Shown: one piece after another, positions 6,975 to 48,287 of the stretch | Layout: every line of letters begins with the position of its first letter | Position numbering within the stretch: the stretch's first letter is position 1 | Source of the DNA: Spizellomyces punctatus DAOM BR117 | Taxonomy: Eukaryota | Direction: 5' to 3' (one strand) | Length of the DNA stretch: 64,000 nucleotides | Assembly: GCA_000182565.2 (NCBI GenBank) | Contig: KQ257456.1 | Notes under the pieces: model-generated | Databases searched by the model: none | The model's input: the letters and a program-made list of their open reading frames with translations, nothing else | Told to the model about the DNA's origin: nothing | Made by a program: the position numbers and the translations under genes

Positions 6975-7801
6975 TTCCAGTGATTATACCATCAAGCAAA
7001 GTAGATGCTTGGCCGCAATATCTACCTTTGAGGGGAAGCCCAGTCTCACTTCCATGCAAAGCTTGAGTAGAACGCTGTAAATGTTCCAGGGAGTCATAGT
7101 TGCTACTCTTATTCGCATAAAGCTGTCGTTGCGCATTGGGTTGTAAAGTAAATAGAGCGAATTGTGTCCTCATTTCGTTTCCCCATGCCTGGCGCTTTTT
7201 TAAATTGTGAAATCGGTGTGCGAGGGCGCATTTGTGCTTATCCAAATGGTTAACTGGAGTGCCTGGTTCAGCGCGGTATATTGCTCCGCGCACTTGACCG
7301 CCTCTCTTCCCGCTCTAACACTTTTAGAACCCTGATTTTTACCAGCTCAAGCTTATCCTTCTCACGAGCACTTTTTGTCCAAATCATGAAAATCTAAAGT
7401 ACTGAGACAACACTACTCGTCAACCATGATCTATTTTGGACGACACGCTATTAAACTTGGGCTTCCATTCGCAATCCTGTTAAATGCATCAATGCCGACA
7501 AGAACGAATCGCATGACAGATACATGTTGGGGGGGAAAAATATTCCAAATTTGAAAAAACTTCATTAATCCTGAAGCAAATGGTTTGAACCGTTTGATCA
7601 GGGCTGAGCACATTCTTGCTTACACAGCCGCGCGCTTTTCAATCATTAAATACGGCTGTTGGTCTTGTTCAGCAAGCAAAGAAAGTGTACCCAGCCTCTT
7701 GTGGGGGTTTTTTTTGTTCTACTGCGGGGCCAGGGACGACCGTCGTTATAAAGTTGACGTATTCTGACAAAAAGTATCAAAGGGTATAATACTGGTTCAC
7801 A

Positions 7802-9023: not shown

Positions 9024-10180
9024 CTACGACTTGCGCTCATCCAATCCGAGCTGACTGTGGCCTCCGTGTTGTGGGTGCTGATGACTCGGATGCCCAGGGT
9101 GTCCATGTGATTGGTGCTGGTGTGTTTGCTGAGGGGCCGTCGAAGAGACATGCGGGCTACCCCCCAGCGAAGTTGACACCTGCGGAAGATGTCCACCTCC
9201 CACATTGGAAACATTATCATACACGTTCTTTACTCCTGGATGTTGGTGCTGTTGAAACGCGTTTTGGGCAGCAGCCGCCATTGCGGCCGCTGCAGCAGCG
9301 GCTGCAGCAGGGTTGCTTGTGATCTGGCTTGGGTCACCGTTTGTTACTGCACCGAGAAACTGCGCACTCGCATTGCGCTGCTCCAATGCAGTGGTGTGCT
9401 TTACCGTCTTCAAGTGAGTTCCGACATTTGAAAGCTGCGGCTGGCGACCTCCGTTTCGAAGCGAAATGGTTACGGGACGCGAGTTGCATACGAGGCACTT
9501 CCATACTCCTTCTGCCCCGCGGCCATCCCTAGAATGCTCAACACCAACCCGATAGTCCACATCCTTTCTTAGCGCTCTCGTTACAGGTGACTCTGCCAAG
9601 TGACGCTCCAATGACGCGAGTAAAGTAGGCAAATCTGGTGGACTCTGCATTAGAGGGCTCCCTTCATCCGTCATTCGGCGACGCTTACGGGGACCCGGAG
9701 ACGCACCCAGTGCAGCCAGAACATTTGCATTGGCGGGATCATTTGGATCGAGCCCATATGGTGGATTGGTTACATACTAACAACGATACGCGTTAAAAGT
9801 GAATACAACCATCAATTCCAAGAAAAATAGCTTACTTGAATAACCAACTTGCGATGACCAGGCTTCAAAGTTCTCTTTGTGTAGTACTCGGCCGAAACGA
9901 GATCATTGTTTGGGTCAGTCAAGTTAACGTTGAGTGTGCGAATGGCGTCGATGGTTTCATAACCCGCATCAAACAAGAGGCTGGTGGCTTCTGAAGGGAT
10001 ATGAGGGTGCAGCTGCTCAATTAACCTCTGACGAGCCTGTTCTGTCTGGACCAATGGTTCCATCAGCGGGGGAGTCGACGGCAGTGCGTTCGCCCCTTGA
10101 GCGTTTTGGGCTAGTTCGTGGTGCTGCTGCTCAGTCATTTGCGAGAGGCTGATGAGAGCTTGGCCGACGCTGCTTTCCAT
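9024..10180 (-). CDS. SAM-like domain plus single C2H2-type zinc finger protein with a Q/H/A-rich tail (putative regulator); 2 exons
   Basis: Exon 1 LFDAGYETIDAIRTL...LKPGHRKLVIQ is SAM-like. Intron about 9835-9777 (GTAAG...TTAG). Exon 2 has NLS-like PRKRRR and WKCLVC...GTHLKTVKH. Confidence 0.65.
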
Positions 10181-10779
10181 ATGCACAATGGGTAACTGCG
10201 CGCAAACAGTCAGCTTGATACTATACACAGAAAAGGTGGGCTACAAGAAGCCCCAAGATTACCCTTTGTCCGGACGCGTAGGGGCGAGGGCAAACGACCG
10301 CGGGAGTTGGTTGCTGGTTTCTTGAAGGGTGGTTCCGCGAGAAACGAAATGTGGAAGGAAGGAAAGAAACGGTTCGCTTCGCTTCTTTTCTTTCACAAAC
10401 CACTTTCTATATTTGGTTACATTGAATTCCAGTCGCATGATTCGCTAGCGATTTGTGATTCGATCAGCCATTCGATCAGCTCACTTTTTGCAATGCATTC
10501 CATCACTCGTTTCATTATTCCATTTACAGGTTAATGAAGTGTCATTGGATTCTGGTAGGCGATTCTTATCAGAGATCTCTGCGGCGTTCCTCATAGCGCT
10601 TTCTATACCTGCCATTATGTTGTTAGAAAATATTGGACCAGTCGGTTGACTTTTCCAGGTGCTCAGCACTTTGAAGAATCTCTGTTTGTCATCCGCATCG
10701 ACCATTTCGTAGGCGTATTTATAAAATAGAATTTAGGGTTCACGCCTGTAGATCCAAAGCACACCAGCACCGTCACATA

Positions 10780-10804
10780 GTGTATTGGCAAGAACTAATG
10801 TCAC
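10780..10804 (+). repeat. Left terminal inverted repeat of the Fanzor element
   Basis: GTGTATTGGCAAGAACTAATGTCAC, preceded by CATA (10776-10779); pairs with 13043-13067. Confidence 0.75.
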
Positions 10805-10938
10805 AAACAATACACAAACTGAGTCGATACATTGAGTCATGGAGTGTCATATATGTGGCAAACTGCAGAATATTCCTCTCATAGATGGCCGTCAGATGGC
10901 TGCAAGGGATAGTAATTGCAATCATTCATGGCCGCAGG

Positions 10939-11014
10939 TATTGGACCCGTTTTCATGCTGGCCACACATATTGGACCCGTTTTCATGCTGGCCACACATA
11001 TTGGACCCGTTTTC
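10939..11014 (+). repeat. 30-bp tandem repeat (about 2.5 copies) inside the Fanzor element, upstream of the ORF
   Basis: Unit TATTGGACCCGTTTTCATGCTGGCCACACA exact at 10939 and 10969, partial at 10999. Confidence 0.95.
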
Positions 11015-11077
11015 TCATGACAACAAACATAAATAGTGGCCATGGTCGCGGCATTTTCTCCTTTAACCCATCCTGAT

Positions 11078-12928
11078 ATGGGATGTCCTACATGTAACGG
11101 CACCGACCATCATCGGGCTTCCAGCAAACTTTGCTCCTTCTACAAACCTCGAAAGAAAAACGAAGTACGCACAACTTTGAAAAGGAAGAGGGATACCGAC
11201 CTTCCCAATGACGAAATCTTCATTCTTTCGACTGTTGTAAAAAGTGGACAACGGTCCCCTTTGCAAGTTGTTATCGCACATGCTGCGAGAACCTTGACTT
11301 GTATCGCTGCTGAAGCCACGCGGTTGTTCAACATGTTCGTCCTGGACCTTTTGGAGAGGAAGCAACAAATCCCCGAGTGTAGTTACAACAAATTTCTGCA
11401 CCAACCATTCCAGATTATTGCTTTGGCAAAAGCATCTTCCCCCCAACTGCAAACGATTCATCGCACCTTGTACCGTCAAACATCTCGATACGATGTTACC
11501 TACCTCAGCCAGCTGATCTCAAACATGGCCAAAGATTACGAGACCAACTGCATGAACCATGTATCAACAAACATTCGCAAATGGGCTTTCAAGTGGTATC
11601 GAATGAAGATGCAGAAGACGTACCCAGATCTCAAGCGAGATAAAATCCGAATTCTGTTCAACAAGGAAGATGACTTGAACGAGCATTCTCTTTACTTAAA
11701 GGCATGCTTGATGACATATGACGTTGACATCACCAAAGAGGTGTCATTTGACCATTGGTGGACATACTTTCCTTTGATGTGGAAGTTTCAAAGGTATTTT
11801 GCCAAGCACGGAGAGAGGAATTTCTCCATGGTCCCAATTACCACTTACGGGATTCGCCACATCCGTCTCGATACCAATGCACTTTACAAACTGTGCCTGA
11901 GAGTGGATCTATTCACCAGGAAGGATGTACCCGCAGCTGAATTCCGGACAAACGCTCTCGTTTATTGGAAAACCCTGTTCCCCGATATTGCCGAGACGAG
12001 CAACAAGTCATTTGCATACGGCGTCTCGACCGACGGAGTCGCTTGCAGTTACTATTACCAGAAACGTTACGTTCGGCGGCGACAGAGTCACAATTACTAT
12101 GGCTTCGACGATGACGGAAAATATGGAGCAATGAATTTGGAAGACGGCGTATCCATCGTCGGTGTGGATCCCGGTAGGATTGACATCTTTACAGCTGTTG
12201 ATGGGAACGAAAATGTTGTGAGGATGTCCAGAAAGGAATTTTACTCACTCACGGGCATGGTGGCAAGTCAGAAGACTAGAAACCGATGGTTAAAGAACAA
12301 CCCAGCAGTCCAGTCGATCGTAACGCAATGTCCCACACCACGCACTCCAGATATTGAGAACTTTCGACAACACTGTCAATATGTGCAGCAGCATCTGTTA
12401 ACCTTGGTCGACTTTTACGGAGCGCGGCGGTTCACCCGTCAAAAGTTGCACACTTACATTGGCAAGCAGAAAGTCTGGGCTACGATCGTAAGAAGAATTA
12501 CCAAGAATGACAGACGCACGGTTGTGGCGCTGGGCGATGCAAAGTTCAGACACAACTCCAAAGGCGGACCTTCGACACCCCTCGCTAGGATGGCCAAAGA
12601 GTTAAAAAGGAGACACCGGGTTCGAATGATTGACGAATTCAGAACGTCCATAACGTGTTCACATTGCGATGGTGAATTGCCGAAAAGCACTCGACACTGG
12701 CAGGTCAAGGTACGTTGGGCCGTCATGAATTCGGTTTCACAAAAGTGAAGTTGAATTTGTGTGTTTTGCCAGGTCTGCAACGACTTATGTTTGACTCACT
12801 GGAATCGAGACGTTAATGCGGCAAGGAACATTCGAAATATTTTTCTCCACATGAACGAGAACAACGGAGAACGCCCTTGCTGCTTTGCACGTACTGTACC
12901 CCAGTTCAACCCAGGCTGGAACCTGTAG
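11078..12928 (+). CDS. Fanzor1 (eukaryotic TnpB-like RuvC RNA-guided endonuclease), ~595 aa; exons 11078-12709 and 12773-12928 (alternative ATG at 11042)
   Basis: RuvC-I SIVGVDPGRIDIF (D codon 12167), VVALGD, rearranged catalytic Glu in MIDEFRTS (12635), Zn finger CSHC...VCNDLC and RuvC-III WNRDVNAARNI (D codon 12809). Also FSMVP and GVSTDGVAC motifs, an N-terminal CxxC..H..C knuckle and basic NLS-like KPRKK/LKRKRD. Phase-0 intron GTACGT...TTTTGCCAG at 12710-12772. Confidence 0.93.
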
Positions 12929-12994
12929 CGAGTTAGGATAGGGGTGGGACTCGTTTGCAGGATAGGTTATGAAGGGTTGGACAGGCTGGCTAAT

Positions 12995-13089
12995 TGTAAA
13001 TTAGAACCGGCTGTAGTGGGTTGGAGGGAGAATCTGTCCCTAGTGACATTTTCTACCACCTGCACACTATTGCGACCAAGTATTCTGCC
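12995..13089 (+). ncRNA. Putative Fanzor omegaRNA: scaffold to about 13069 plus flank-derived guide (~TTGCGACCAAGTATTCTGCC)
   Basis: Lies between the Fanzor stop codon and the right end, the known omegaRNA position. Visible stems are AACC/GGTT (13005-13022), GGGA/TCCC (13026-13040) and TAGTG/CACTA (13041-13069). The 5' boundary is a guess. Confidence 0.7.
13043..13067 (-). repeat. Right terminal inverted repeat of the Fanzor element
   Basis: GTGACATTTTCTACCACCTGCACAC followed by TA; inverse of 10780-10804. Confidence 0.75.
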
Positions 13090-13437
13090 AGCAAGTGTGT
13101 TTATTTGCTGACGTGAGCCTTTTGTTTATAACAAAAATGGCGGTCCCCCCTTTGCGTTTCAAATGTGGTGGGCGCCAATGCCGTTGTACCCCCGTGTTTC
13201 AGGTCAAAGTTGTTGAGTATCTCAACATGCCCCTTGCCCACTTTGCGTGCATAGGGCTCGTGTATGCTTGAACAAAGAGCGTGAGAAAAAGGCAGCGGGG
13301 TGCTCGTTCCACCGCCCTTCCCGTCACCTTTGCACGTTCGCAGCCCGGACATTTGAGTTTCCGGGGAATTGGCGAAAGCAGTTATCCTAACAATCGGGCG
13401 GAACTCAAGAAACCTGCCCTTGTCATCCAGTTGGGCA

Positions 13438-16047
13438 ATGGCCGCAACTGTCCATACCCGCTTAACCGATCACGATCACGACTTGTATTCTCGAACTAAC
13501 CGCAGCACTGGACCTTCAATGTACGATGCTGAAGCGTATGCCTTGCAAGAAGACACAACACCCATCATGACGGAGGACGAAATGATGCAAGTGGAAAGAG
13601 AACTGCTAACTGCATGGCAAAGTAGGACTCCTGCAAAGCCTTCGGATGCACAGCTGGCGTCTCCTGCTGTTACGAACGGGGGCGAAGCGTCCCCTCGTAT
13701 CGCGGACACGGCAAGGTCACTCGAGATCGAACGAAAGAAAAGCCTGTACGCAAGCGAATTTGCCGAGTCGGTCCAAAACATGAAGAACCTTGCCGAAAAG
13801 CAGCGAAGATTAGAAGAATTACAATTGTCCCTAGACGACTCGTATGAAATTCGGAAAGATATGCAGGTGGAAGACGAAGTTGAACGTGTCTGGATGTCTC
13901 CCACCTTCGGATCTGGAGGACAAAATGACAATCTGCCAAAAGATGAAAATGAGAATGGGAGTGCGGCAGCCAATCATGGCGAGACAGCCTCATCCTCTCG
14001 GAGTGTACCAGCGTATGTGGCCACGTCACAAGAAATGGATGGAGCAGAGACCTCGAGTCTACTTATCGATACAAAGGGCCATTTACAGCAGCTGGAGAAA
14101 GAACTGGAATTGCTGAGAGTTACTACTCTTTCTCGGCCAGCGACTTCCGAGTCTAGTTCCCCAGCTCTGTCTGTAGCTGCAGAAATGTCAGAGACAAGAG
14201 AATCCCCTGTTGCGGTGGACGAGGATGGAAATGAATGCATGGAGACGCAGGACGCCTGGGGCAAGGCGGATGGCAATGCAAAGCAAGATGTTGATGCAAA
14301 GTCTGCGCAACGGGTTTCGTTAACCGTTCGCACCTCTCGGTCCAGCTCATCTCTACAGTGGCACTCTTCCAAGCACTCATACATTTACGAACCAGTCAAG
14401 AACACAAAAGCAGATGTCGCGGATCTACTGGTACAGATACAAGAAGAGTATGAAGAACTTACATCCGAACCTTTTCCTTCACCAAAAGCCGATGTATCGC
14501 TCGCAACATCTTTTGACAATTGGAATAAGGATGCCAAGCCTGCCGATAGTGTGCCAGTGACGGTGAAAAAATTTCACTTACCCATGGGTCGGCCCAAGTA
14601 TATGCAGTCCCTACTGATGCAAGTTGACGATCCCAAAGTCAAGGAACGACTTCGCGAGATGCATAAAATACGGCAGTCGAACGCAGCCGCAGGATTGGCT
14701 GTTTTGGTGCCGTATTCTGTTGGACCAAGGCAGACGGGTGAATTTGGTAGTTTAGGGGAAGTCGTCGAGGTGAATGAGGATGGGGATGATACTGCATCTC
14801 AGCTGACAGAGGACGACCCAAGTTCCCCTGTTGTTGAGCAAAAGTCTTCCTTGCAGCCACCACCACGGCGAATTATTCCACCAACAGCAACCGATGGTCA
14901 CTTGGGAACATCGACCTCATCTAGAGGCACGGAAGAAATTGCTGGACGTGCTAGCGTAGCCCCAGCACTGCCCTCCTATCTAACATCATCACCGGCAAGT
15001 CAGGGCAGCCCTATTCCTGTCCCGCCGGTGAGACGATCCAGCATTTGTTACTCATCCCTTTCGATCCCTTCCGCACCGCAATGGGCGCCGATTCAACTCG
15101 CACCGACCGCAAACAATGACTCAAAACGCCTCACACCCCTCACCCTCCACATTCCCCCACCGCCACGCACCTTCCCACCCCAGTATCTCCATCCCCGCCT
15201 TTCCCGTATGGGTGTTATGGACTTGTCACCGAGGCCCGCAGGACGGCCATCGACACTTGGTAGAACGTGGGGAGATCCGACCAACGTGACGTCGTTTGTT
15301 ACACCAGTACATTCCGCTCCGGAAAGATTGAAGACTGCTCCAAGTTCCATTACAGGACCTCAGTTGGTCAGCACATCTGCGAGAATCAAGACCGTACCCA
15401 TCAACAATGTTCTCAGGGAGCTGCAATTGAAGGGGAAAACCCAGTATGCAGAATCTTACATAAATGACAACGTCTCGCTCGGCAGTAACACTTACGGAAC
15501 GGCGCAAAGGGCGCAAACAGTGACTGGGGTATTCCGAGGACAAGGCTCACGAAAACGATCGGACGTTTTTTCGGTGTTTGAGGAGCAGGATCCTCTTGAG
15601 AGGAATTACACATCACCGGCCCCCATACCTGGTGTGTCCATGAACACCCGCACTGCAACCGTCTATCCGAGTCCTCCGGGCACTCCCTCTTTCCAACGAG
15701 AACGTAGCGCATCGTCGCCTCAGCTACCCAATGCTTCCGGGTCACATTTCACCAAATATGTCCGTAAAGTCGGTAAAGCCCTCAAAACGGCCATCGATCC
15801 TTACACCCCTCCTCCTCAAACCACACCTCCAGTATCTGGTTATGCAACAGCCGACCGCACGCTCCGCCACTCCAAATCCATGAGCTCGTTGCTACCAGAT
15901 CAAAGTGCAGTGACCTTCTCCCAAGCTGCTGCAAATACGGGTGATATTTCTCCGACGACATTGCAAAATAAGCGATCCGCTGAGATGGAAAAGTTTAGAC
16001 AAATGTTGATTGAAACCTATTCAGGTCCGAGTGGACCAGCGGCATGA
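13438..16047 (+). CDS. Hypothetical S/P/T-rich, largely disordered protein with short coiled coils; intronless, ~870 aa
   Basis: 2.6-kb uninterrupted ORF, first ATG at 13438; no family recognised. Confidence 0.75.
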   Translation: MAATVHTRLTDHDHDLYSRTNRSTGPSMYDAEAYALQEDTTPIMTEDEMMQVERELLTAWQSRTPAKPSDAQLASPAVTNGGEASPRIADTARSLEIERKKSLYASEFAESVQNMKNLAEKQRRLEELQLSLDDSYEIRKDMQVEDEVERVWMSPTFGSGGQNDNLPKDENENGSAAANHGETASSSRSVPAYVATSQEMDGAETSSLLIDTKGHLQQLEKELELLRVTTLSRPATSESSSPALSVAAEMSETRESPVAVDEDGNECMETQDAWGKADGNAKQDVDAKSAQRVSLTVRTSRSSSSLQWHSSKHSYIYEPVKNTKADVADLLVQIQEEYEELTSEPFPSPKADVSLATSFDNWNKDAKPADSVPVTVKKFHLPMGRPKYMQSLLMQVDDPKVKERLREMHKIRQSNAAAGLAVLVPYSVGPRQTGEFGSLGEVVEVNEDGDDTASQLTEDDPSSPVVEQKSSLQPPPRRIIPPTATDGHLGTSTSSRGTEEIAGRASVAPALPSYLTSSPASQGSPIPVPPVRRSSICYSSLSIPSAPQWAPIQLAPTANNDSKRLTPLTLHIPPPPRTFPPQYLHPRLSRMGVMDLSPRPAGRPSTLGRTWGDPTNVTSFVTPVHSAPERLKTAPSSITGPQLVSTSARIKTVPINNVLRELQLKGKTQYAESYINDNVSLGSNTYGTAQRAQTVTGVFRGQGSRKRSDVFSVFEEQDPLERNYTSPAPIPGVSMNTRTATVYPSPPGTPSFQRERSASSPQLPNASGSHFTKYVRKVGKALKTAIDPYTPPPQTTPPVSGYATADRTLRHSKSMSSLLPDQSAVTFSQAAANTGDISPTTLQNKRSAEMEKFRQMLIETYSGPSGPAA

Positions 16048-28305: not shown

Positions 28306-28405
28306 NNNNNNNNNNNNNNNNNNNNNNNNNNNNNNNNNNNNNNNNNNNNNNNNNNNNNNNNNNNNNNNNNNNNNNNNNNNNNNNNNNNNNNNNNNNNNNN
28401 NNNNN
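28306..28405. other. Assembly gap (100 N)
   Basis: Run of N. Confidence 0.99.
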
Positions 28406-46819: not shown

Positions 46820-47329
46820 TTACGGACGGTCAGTGTGGGTAGCGACATGGGTATCAACACCGTGACCAGCAGTAATAAATTCTACACGGCTCTCTGCACG
46901 GCTGTCTGCACGGCTCTCAGCTCGACTCTCAGCTCGACTCTCAGCCCGACTCTCCTCCCCACATCCATCACCCCCAACAACCCAATACGGAGGCGGTTCA
47001 TCCCCACCAACCTCGCTACACTCCAAAACCATCCTCTCAAACCTCTCCCGACCTTTAGCAAAAGCCCCCAACCCACTCCCAAAATACACAACAACATACA
47101 AAACCCCTTTTCGAACAACAGCCGCATACCCTCTAAACTGCGTCCTTTTATTTCCCTTCAAGACAAAATGCCAAATTACACCCCCAGAGCACCATCCCTC
47201 CATTGTTTGTCGCGTCGCTTCCACAAGGTCTTTATGCGCGGCTTCCAAGAGTTCTTTTAATGCTTTTTGGGTAGAGTTGGGTGTTGGGAATGGTGGGAGG
47301 AGGGTAATACATGTAGGTGGATGTGGAAT
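46820..47329 (-). CDS. C-terminal fragment of a hypothetical protein truncated by the gap; contains SRA(E/D) repeats
   Basis: Frame is open from the gap to 46820 and includes a 12-bp tandem repeat at about 46885-46950. Confidence 0.4.
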   Translation of the reverse strand: MPHPPTCITLLPPFPTPNSTQKALKELLEAAHKDLVEATRQTMEGWCSGGVIWHFVLKGNKRTQFRGYAAVVRKGVLYVVVYFGSGLGAFAKGRERFERMVLECSEVGGDEPPPYWVVGGDGCGEESRAESRAESRAESRADSRAESRVEFITAGHGVDTHVATHTDRP

Positions 47330-47862
47330 NNNNNNNNNNNNNNNNNNNNNNNNNNNNNNNNNNNNNNNNNNNNNNNNNNNNNNNNNNNNNNNNNNNNNNN
47401 NNNNNNNNNNNNNNNNNNNNNNNNNNNNNNNNNNNNNNNNNNNNNNNNNNNNNNNNNNNNNNNNNNNNNNNNNNNNNNNNNNNNNNNNNNNNNNNNNNNN
47501 NNNNNNNNNNNNNNNNNNNNNNNNNNNNNNNNNNNNNNNNNNNNNNNNNNNNNNNNNNNNNNNNNNNNNNNNNNNNNNNNNNNNNNNNNNNNNNNNNNNN
47601 NNNNNNNNNNNNNNNNNNNNNNNNNNNNNNNNNNNNNNNNNNNNNNNNNNNNNNNNNNNNNNNNNNNNNNNNNNNNNNNNNNNNNNNNNNNNNNNNNNNN
47701 NNNNNNNNNNNNNNNNNNNNNNNNNNNNNNNNNNNNNNNNNNNNNNNNNNNNNNNNNNNNNNNNNNNNNNNNNNNNNNNNNNNNNNNNNNNNNNNNNNNN
47801 NNNNNNNNNNNNNNNNNNNNNNNNNNNNNNNNNNNNNNNNNNNNNNNNNNNNNNNNNNNNNN
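47330..47862. other. Assembly gap (~530 N)
   Basis: Run of N. Confidence 0.99.
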
Positions 47863-48287
47863 NCATTGTATATGCCCTCCAACACTTTTGATAATGTCAA
47901 CTCGCTATGGACATGTAGAATGCCCATCCATTTGGTTGAGTTGCGTGATGAGACCTATCGAATCGTGATGGACCGGCGTCCACCCCTGTGGAACGGGAAT
48001 GGAATAATGCCCACATGCGACACGAGTTGCGTTTGTCAATGTATCATGATACGGTACATTGCATGATATATCCTTGATAATGTTGATGCATTCAATCACC
48101 GTCGACATTCAAAAAGTGTAAACAACTTTTGTCGACGAGGTATTTTACTCTGCATCTGCTTTGGACCGTCTTGCTAAGCAAGTGTGGCTTGGCACATGGA
48201 CCCACACATCACACATCACACTCTACAAATCTCCGCCAACGACAATCGTTTTTTTTTTATTTAAAAAACTCGCACGTAACAGCACAT

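Follow-up and report, generated by a model that had tools for sequence, protein, structure and literature searches.

A TA-flanked element with a divergent Fanzor1 gene in Spizellomyces punctatus, and CATA as its candidate TAM

The window analyzed here, a stretch of 64,000 nucleotides from Spizellomyces punctatus, contains a mobile element of 2,288 bp (10780–13067) with a Fanzor1 gene, a conserved 3′ module and a TA read directly on both sides (Table 1). The pattern GTGT-N13-AATGTCAC bounds the element at both ends, exactly and in inverted orientation. These two ends are its only exact matches in the 64 kb, against a mean of 0.03 in shuffled sequence, and two or more matches occurred in none of 100 shuffles of the window. 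Beyond the 12 fixed bases the ends have little in common (15 of the outer 25 positions are identical by our count). The last bases of the element up to 13067, GTGACATTTTCTACCACCTGCACAC, are the inverted counterpart of the left end; the 36-nt left repeat contains an internal 8-nt palindromic pair, GTGTATTG/CAATACAC, and the right flank from 13070 reads TTGCGACCAAGTATTC. An earlier note on this DNA had described a Fanzor element that has terminal inverted repeats (TIRs), is flanked by TA at either end and encodes no transposase itself; this description was borne out. The letters and coordinates that it gave for both flanks all proved correct on direct reading, and removal of 10780–13069 does yield CGTCA-CATA-TTGCGACC, as it had stated. 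The 64-kb window holds no second copy of the element and no further copy of its ends. Strings of 15–16 nt from both ends had no match in published paper text, supplements aside, and a metagenome scan with the TIR pattern gave 0 matches. The element itself is real and well defined.

Table 1. Features of the Fanzor1 element and its immediate flanks (window coordinates).
Feature	Position	Strand	Basis
Left flank, CGTCACATA	10771–10779		Read directly
CATA at the left junction, candidate TAM; last two bases are the 5′ TA	10776–10779	+	Read directly
Left TA, putative 5′ copy of a TA target-site duplication	10778–10779	.	Read directly; copies sharing the left end
Left terminal repeat, 36 nt, GTGTATTG...CAATACAC	10780–10815	+	Repeat analysis; sibling reads
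Left end GTGTATTGGCAAGAACTAATGTCAC, holding GTGT-N13-AATGTCAC	10780–10804	+	Read directly
Tandem repeats, 3 × 30 nt, upstream of the ORF; possibly promoter-proximal	10929–11018	+	100/90/77% identity
Fanzor1 exon 1	11078–12710	+	ORF and homology; 8gkh match
Intron, 62 nt, GT...AG	12711–12772	+	Read directly
Fanzor1 exon 2, 51 aa and stop TAG (12926–12928); NRDVNAARN motif	12773–12928	+	Relatives
Conserved 3′ terminal module, putative guide-RNA (omega RNA) scaffold	12896–13069	+	Reads
Right terminal repeat, GTGT-N13-AATGTCAC	13043–13067	−	Pattern count
Right TA, putative 3′ copy of the duplication	13068–13069	.	Read directly; sibling copies
Right flank TTGCGACCAAGTAT, putative template of a guide of ~14 nt	13070–13083	+	Read directly; length inferred

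The 30-nt repeats just upstream of the Fanzor ORF read TGGCC.C..TATTGGACCCGTTTTCATGC, and a fourth, partial copy of the ATATTGGACC core is located at 10630 in the left flank. The left neighboring gene consists of ORFs 9024–9776 and 9812–10228, with a 59-nt minus-strand intron (9777–9835) confirmed by a spliced contig; this gene (9024–10228) had no match in Pfam. Two N runs mark assembly gaps at 28306–28405 and 47330–47863, and a long ORF pair at 46820–47896, open on both strands, is an artifact because it spans the second of them.

The Fanzor1 frame is open from 11036 to 12710 and has an earlier in-frame ATG at 11042; by homology to the relative P0003, translation probably starts at the ATG at 11078. 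Splicing joins WQVK to VCNDLCLTHWNRDVNAARNI, in agreement with the relatives P0003 and P0004, both of which also keep the NRDVNAARN motif of exon 2. No spliced read across the 62-nt intron was seen in the RNA run, because the depth of the mRNA is too low. An X10 transcript contig skips 85 nt at 12373–12457, within exon 1, with ends CT..AC. These ends belong to a canonical minus-strand intron (GTAAGT...CAG), and therefore an antisense spliced transcript crosses the Fanzor gene.

The sole PDB match of the protein was SpuFz1 (8gkh; E 7.1e-13, query residues 243–546), with ~25% identity confined to the C-terminal half (~300 aa); a profile of four relatives matched the characterized Fanzor1 with E 2.4e-11. 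In the 8gkh alignment (numbering offset 394, checked on D383, N385, and E541 as named in PMC10432273), D378 and E534 align with the catalytic D383 and E541 of SpuFz1. The third RuvC Asp would lie in NRDVNAARN, where it is matched by motif only; exon 2 alone had no match in the PDB. In DEFRTSITCSHC, six residues separate E534 from C541, the first zinc-finger Cys, and a Glu six residues before the zinc-finger Cys is given as a Fanzor trait in a 2026 review (PMC13565253). The domain PF07282 (OrfB_Zn_ribbon/Cas12f1-like TNB), split here by the intron, scored E 0.019 and 15.6 bits against a cutoff of 26.3, and is carried by the relatives P0003 and P0004.

Relatives were sought in 5.8 billion protein clusters, in a search limited by its word index. 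The close relatives number only three, namely P0003 of Borealophlyctis nickersoniae (51% identity) and two JGI proteins (64% and 52%), and all agree at the junction and the C-terminus. The next tier of homologs is ~25% identical, carries PF26935 together with PF07282, and is nearer to Parasitella Fz1 than to SpuFz1, as tested on P0043. Among metagenomes, a scan with the protein alignment gave 36 pattern matches with 0 confirmed, and the scan of viral contigs gave 46 with 0 confirmed. Judging from its sequence, the gene is an intact, one-intron Fanzor1 of a small and divergent chytrid-type subfamily.

Sequences from four public runs were mapped to the region 9300–14600. Two carry the same species label, a DNA run of 38-nt reads (X21) and an RNA run of 60-nt reads (X20); the contigs of the third behave like a transcriptome of the same organism, with the neighboring gene spliced (X10), and those of the fourth come from a sister species whose flanks are roughly 90–96% alike (X11). 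RNA depth was 697.5 in the bin 12840–13016 and 440.3 in the bin 13017–13193, at most 4.5 in the nine bins of 11247–12839, and at most 0.3 beyond 13194. Over the final ~170 nt of the element, RNA density thus exceeds that of the gene body more than 100-fold, and DNA depth is raised about 2-fold over 12840–13016. Only partial fits were obtained for 6,148 of the 6,456 placed RNA reads (strand convention of the library not calibrated), so that most of these reads come from sibling loci or are tailed. The conserved 3′ module starts inside exon 2, where its first 33 nt are also the end of the coding sequence with the stop codon, and it takes in the right TIR as well as the 3′ TA.

Several observations describe the sibling loci that carry this module. 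A transcript contig of 362 nt (X10) has only 12896–13063 in common with the element (3 differences), and its 178 nt upstream of this part are unrelated; its depth is 69.8, compared with 4–7 for neighboring transcripts. This contig is an ORF-less, “ghost”-like sibling locus. A 5-nt deletion at 12891 in sibling copies was found in 26/86 DNA reads and 89/146 RNA reads, and in seven DNA reads the loose end before 12849 spells out 12819–12826, which suggests a variant with a 22-nt deletion at 12827–12848. In sibling reads and contigs the match ends precisely at 13069 and 10778, with the TA included. At the right TA, the match extends to 13069 in 13 DNA and 256 RNA reads, which run on from there in loose ends of mixed sequence (consensus agreement 0.76 for DNA and 0.48 for RNA), with a median length of 14 nt in the RNA reads. 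At the left TA, the three most-read classes of RNA loose ends begin at 10775, 10777, and 10778, and the TA at 10778–10779 is present in all four of the sister-species pieces listed. TA flanks both this element and its sibling copies, a pattern that fits a duplication or a fixed terminal TA.

The reads fit a 3′ guide RNA whose scaffold includes the 3′ TA and is followed by variable sequence. The putative guide would be ~14 nt long, because this is the median loose end after 13069 and the guides of SpuFz1 have 14–15 nt (PMC10432273). By analogy with SpuFz1, the RNA of the 3′ module would be bound by this Fanzor1, and the guide would begin directly after the TA. Folding of the module was unexceptional relative to shuffles (z = −1.04; 30 of 200 shuffles fold as well), and comparison with Rfam revealed no matching family.

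The left end has a wider distribution. The TA and the 36-nt left repeat (10778–10815, 38 nt) are common to at least two other sequence families, which diverge directly after 10815 or 10806. RNA loose ends at these two positions were found in 674 and 660 reads, with variable extensions of 13–15 nt on the outer side; RNA depth at the left end was 322.5, in the opposite mate direction. In the sister-species contigs the summed depth of the left-end bin was 1,015.7, or ~50 copies by rough arithmetic. The dominant guide-RNA-producing family of the lineage may have this 36-nt left end as its terminus. The three best-supported left flanks of loci with the repeat, where it may be a left or a right end and may belong to another family, are CATA, GATA, and TTTA; TA is found in all three of them and CA in one.

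A broader, and in our view unlikely, scenario is that a single genome holds two Fanzor1 lineages, unrelated to each other, which both use one TA-targeting system of terminal repeats. In that case the 36-nt repeat on the left would mark the end of another family, far more abundant and likewise transcribed outward. The right end would keep only the 12 bases GTGT...AATGTCAC, because it doubles as the scaffold of a different guide RNA.

For the element as a whole, we slightly favor its reading as a non-autonomous, TA-flanked TIR transposon that encodes a Fanzor1 and an outward guide RNA directed at the naive site. By analogy with Spu-1 and SpuFz1, the last ~170 nt (12896–13069) would be transcribed outward to give the guide-RNA scaffold. 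The 3′ TA would close the scaffold, and the guide would be supplied by ~14 nt of right-flank sequence (TTGCGACCAAGTAT...). The predicted target is the never-occupied version of this site, in which a single TA follows CA and the guide match is directly preceded by 5′-CATA. If the nuclease cuts there and the break is repaired by copying the occupied allele, the element would be spread or restored. By the same analogy, cleavage would serve homing.

The empty allele that the earlier note proposed to seek in reads or in a sister species was not seen. The joint 10779–13070 was absent from the DNA run, whose 38-nt reads give low power. In the sister species, the match to the left flank stops at 10577; the piece 10579–10715 is found on a second contig, and a third carries the right flank from 13119 onward. 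The three contigs measure 33, 20, and 64 kb, and no match was obtained to 10716–10775 or 13070–13118. As these are three separate contigs, no orthologous empty site is readable. The window and the sister species no longer seem syntenic beside the element, and the ~200 nt directly to its left may themselves be mobile or rearranged.

No transposase is encoded inside the element, and Pfam detected no transposase domain, of the Tc1/mariner/IS630 type or any other, in the 10 searched of the 13 non-Fanzor ORFs of the window (at least 250 aa). The proposed mobilization in trans by an IS630/Tc1/mariner-type enzyme accords with the TIRs and the TA, but the window ORFs searched provided no candidate; a TA-targeting DDE transposase encoded elsewhere would move the element. 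Cut-and-paste excision by DDE transposases of the Tc1/mariner type normally leaves TA-footprint-TA. The scar of an excision would therefore carry a footprint, and CATA followed by the guide match would be rebuilt only at a site that was never occupied. Homing and retention, which the earlier note had merged, must accordingly be separated: if such a transposase moves the element, homing at a naive allele would fit better than retention after excision. A related argument is that transposition by DDE cut-and-paste makes a break of its own, so that a nuclease brings less benefit (PMC13565253), and the Discussion of PMC10432273 states that no transposase partner was found for Spu-1.

Whether CATA is the TAM has to be judged from little independent evidence. 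The order “TAM, then guide match” follows from the way the site was reconstructed, since the right flank itself supplies the guide sequence. Moreover, the TA of CATA is fixed by the duplication, so that only CA is informative. CA precedes 212 of the 3,021 TA dinucleotides on the plus strand of the window (7.0%; 7.4% on both strands), and at this one locus CATA itself is not above chance. The 14-mer TTGCGACCAAGTAT had no other exact match in the window and one match with 2 mismatches (7005–7018), which is within chance. The analogy draws on the literature: SpuFz1 does use a 5′-CATA TAM, as the earlier note had stated, and at the Spu-1 loci a conserved CA stands upstream of the left repeat (both PMC10432273), while for Fanzor1 the 5′ TA is described as part of the TAM and the 3′ TA as lying inside the guide-RNA scaffold (PMC13565253). 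The logic by which CATA is taken as TAM is thus already published for Spu-1, with its conserved CA and a 5′ target-site duplication that forms part of the TAM. The cutting of element-free alleles, which the same note ascribed to TnpB and Fanzor alike, holds for TnpB, but the biological role of Fanzor “remains unknown” in the words of PMC10432273.

Six TAM-contact residues of SpuFz1 have been named (PMC10432273). Two of them belong to the part that aligns, and both are kept (R291 as R295, Y345 as Y345), and the other four, R96, Q129, Q130, and N133, sit in the N-terminal half, which has no alignment here; the REC half could be aligned with SpuFz1 neither by single sequence nor by profile. R295 is missing in two of the three relatives (P0003 and P0005). 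With ~25% identity in the C-terminal half only, the TAM of SpuFz1 is not simply transferable. On this evidence we consider a TAM of the form NNTA likely for this Fanzor1, and the full CATA beside the element a tentative assignment with a little less than an even chance.

The alternative that bears most directly on this assignment is a coincidental CA at −4/−3, with a TAM that ends in TA through the duplication and has another upstream preference, or none. The single locus and the 7% background of CA before TA are compatible with it, as are the known Fanzor TAMs, which are diverse (CATA, TTAAN, CCG, and TAG; PMC10432273), and the REC half that cannot be aligned with SpuFz1. The loci sharing the left end point the same way: the four nucleotides to the left of the repeat keep TA in all three and CA in only one. 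Of the CATA-like TAM predicted earlier, the TA is kept in sibling copies, and the CA depends on one locus. On the other side, the flank of Spu-1 does mirror its TAM, and R291, which reads the G opposite C(−4) in SpuFz1 (both PMC10432273), is the very residue kept here as R295. We regard a coincidental CA as somewhat unlikely.

Two further alternatives concern the premises of the proposed scheme. If TA were the outermost part of the element and not a target-site duplication, the empty site would be CGTCACA joined directly to TTGCGACC, and CATA would never be rebuilt. All copies have TA at both ends, a pattern that a fixed terminal TA produces equally, and no empty site was seen that separates the two cases; Bao and Jurka call the TA of SPu-1 only “putative” target-site duplications (PMC3627910), and a transposase partner was found neither for Spu-1 (PMC10432273) nor here. 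Yet TIRs with TA are a hallmark of the Mariner-type elements that carry Fanzor1 (PMC3627910, PMC13565253), and the CATA TAM of SpuFz1, in our view, makes sense only with one TA at the empty site, which renders a terminal TA very improbable. It is also conceivable that the nuclease never acts on the empty donor or homologous site, the copy being silent or having a role in trans, in which case the left flank is irrelevant. The near-zero mRNA depth over the ORF in the RNA run, the origin of most 3′-module reads from other loci and the antisense spliced transcript across the gene are in line with such a copy, and Saito et al. describe the role of Fanzor as unknown and suggest action in trans with ghost loci (PMC10432273). 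Against it, the gene is intact in its reading frame, intron and catalytic residues, and it is joined to the 3′ module on one element, an arrangement known from characterized Fanzor loci; we consider it improbable that this copy is silent or serves another role.

The closest known system is SPu-1/Spu-1 with SpuFz1, also of Spizellomyces punctatus (PMC3627910, PMC10432273). As described in these sources, it shares with our element a length of ~2.1–2.3 kb, a single Fanzor1 gene, TIRs of ~30–36 nt, putative TA duplications and the absence of an internal transposase. It likewise has a 3′ non-coding RNA that runs over the right repeat and ~14–15 nt into the variable flank, CA directly before the left TA, and ORF-less sibling loci that carry the RNA module alone. 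The differences are substantial. The protein of the window is only ~25% identical over the C-terminal ~300 aa, and its gene has an intron, whereas SPu-1 is a single ORF (PMC3627910). The ends of the window element share only 12 fixed bases, its conserved 3′ module is ~170 nt long as opposed to 75 nt in Spu-1, and one full copy was seen here compared with 19 full-length Spu-1 loci (PMC10432273). For the Fanzor1 of the window, TAM, RNA binding and cleavage are predictions. Table 1 of Bao and Jurka lists three Fanzor1 families in S. punctatus, of which the accompanying text describes SPu-1 only (PMC3627910).

Two other systems provide partial parallels. The Tc1/mariner-type element PUl-4 (PMC3627910) also combines Fanzor1 as its only gene with TIRs, TA on both sides and presumed mobilization in trans. 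The TIRs of PUl-4, however, are identical to those of confirmed Mariner elements, whereas the window element has no transposase-bearing partner with the same ends within the 64 kb. With TnpB of IS200/IS605 elements (PMC13565253) the shared features are a right-end guide RNA with flanking DNA as the guide, a TAM that is the target motif to the left of the element, and a nuclease that would recognize the element-free site. The IS200/IS605 elements differ in lacking TIRs and duplication and in their scarless excision through an HUH transposase (PMC13565253); the presumed DDE scar of the window element, we infer, would not rebuild TAM and target.

As it stands, the locus adds one member to a known picture and opens no new question. 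If the two Fanzor1 lineages do ride a shared terminal-repeat system, the TAM (CATA, or at least NNTA) would be set by the target of the transposase and not by the ancestry of the nuclease, and divergent nucleases would have converged on one TAM. If CATA or NNTA is indeed the TAM, the locus would be the second case, with a very divergent protein, of a Fanzor1 that has its TAM built into the TA duplication of the transposon carrying it. This would support the published view that the TAMs of Fanzor1 co-evolve with the target site of the transposon, and the protein, the ~170-nt scaffold and the predicted TAM would together offer a starting point for a new compact nuclease.
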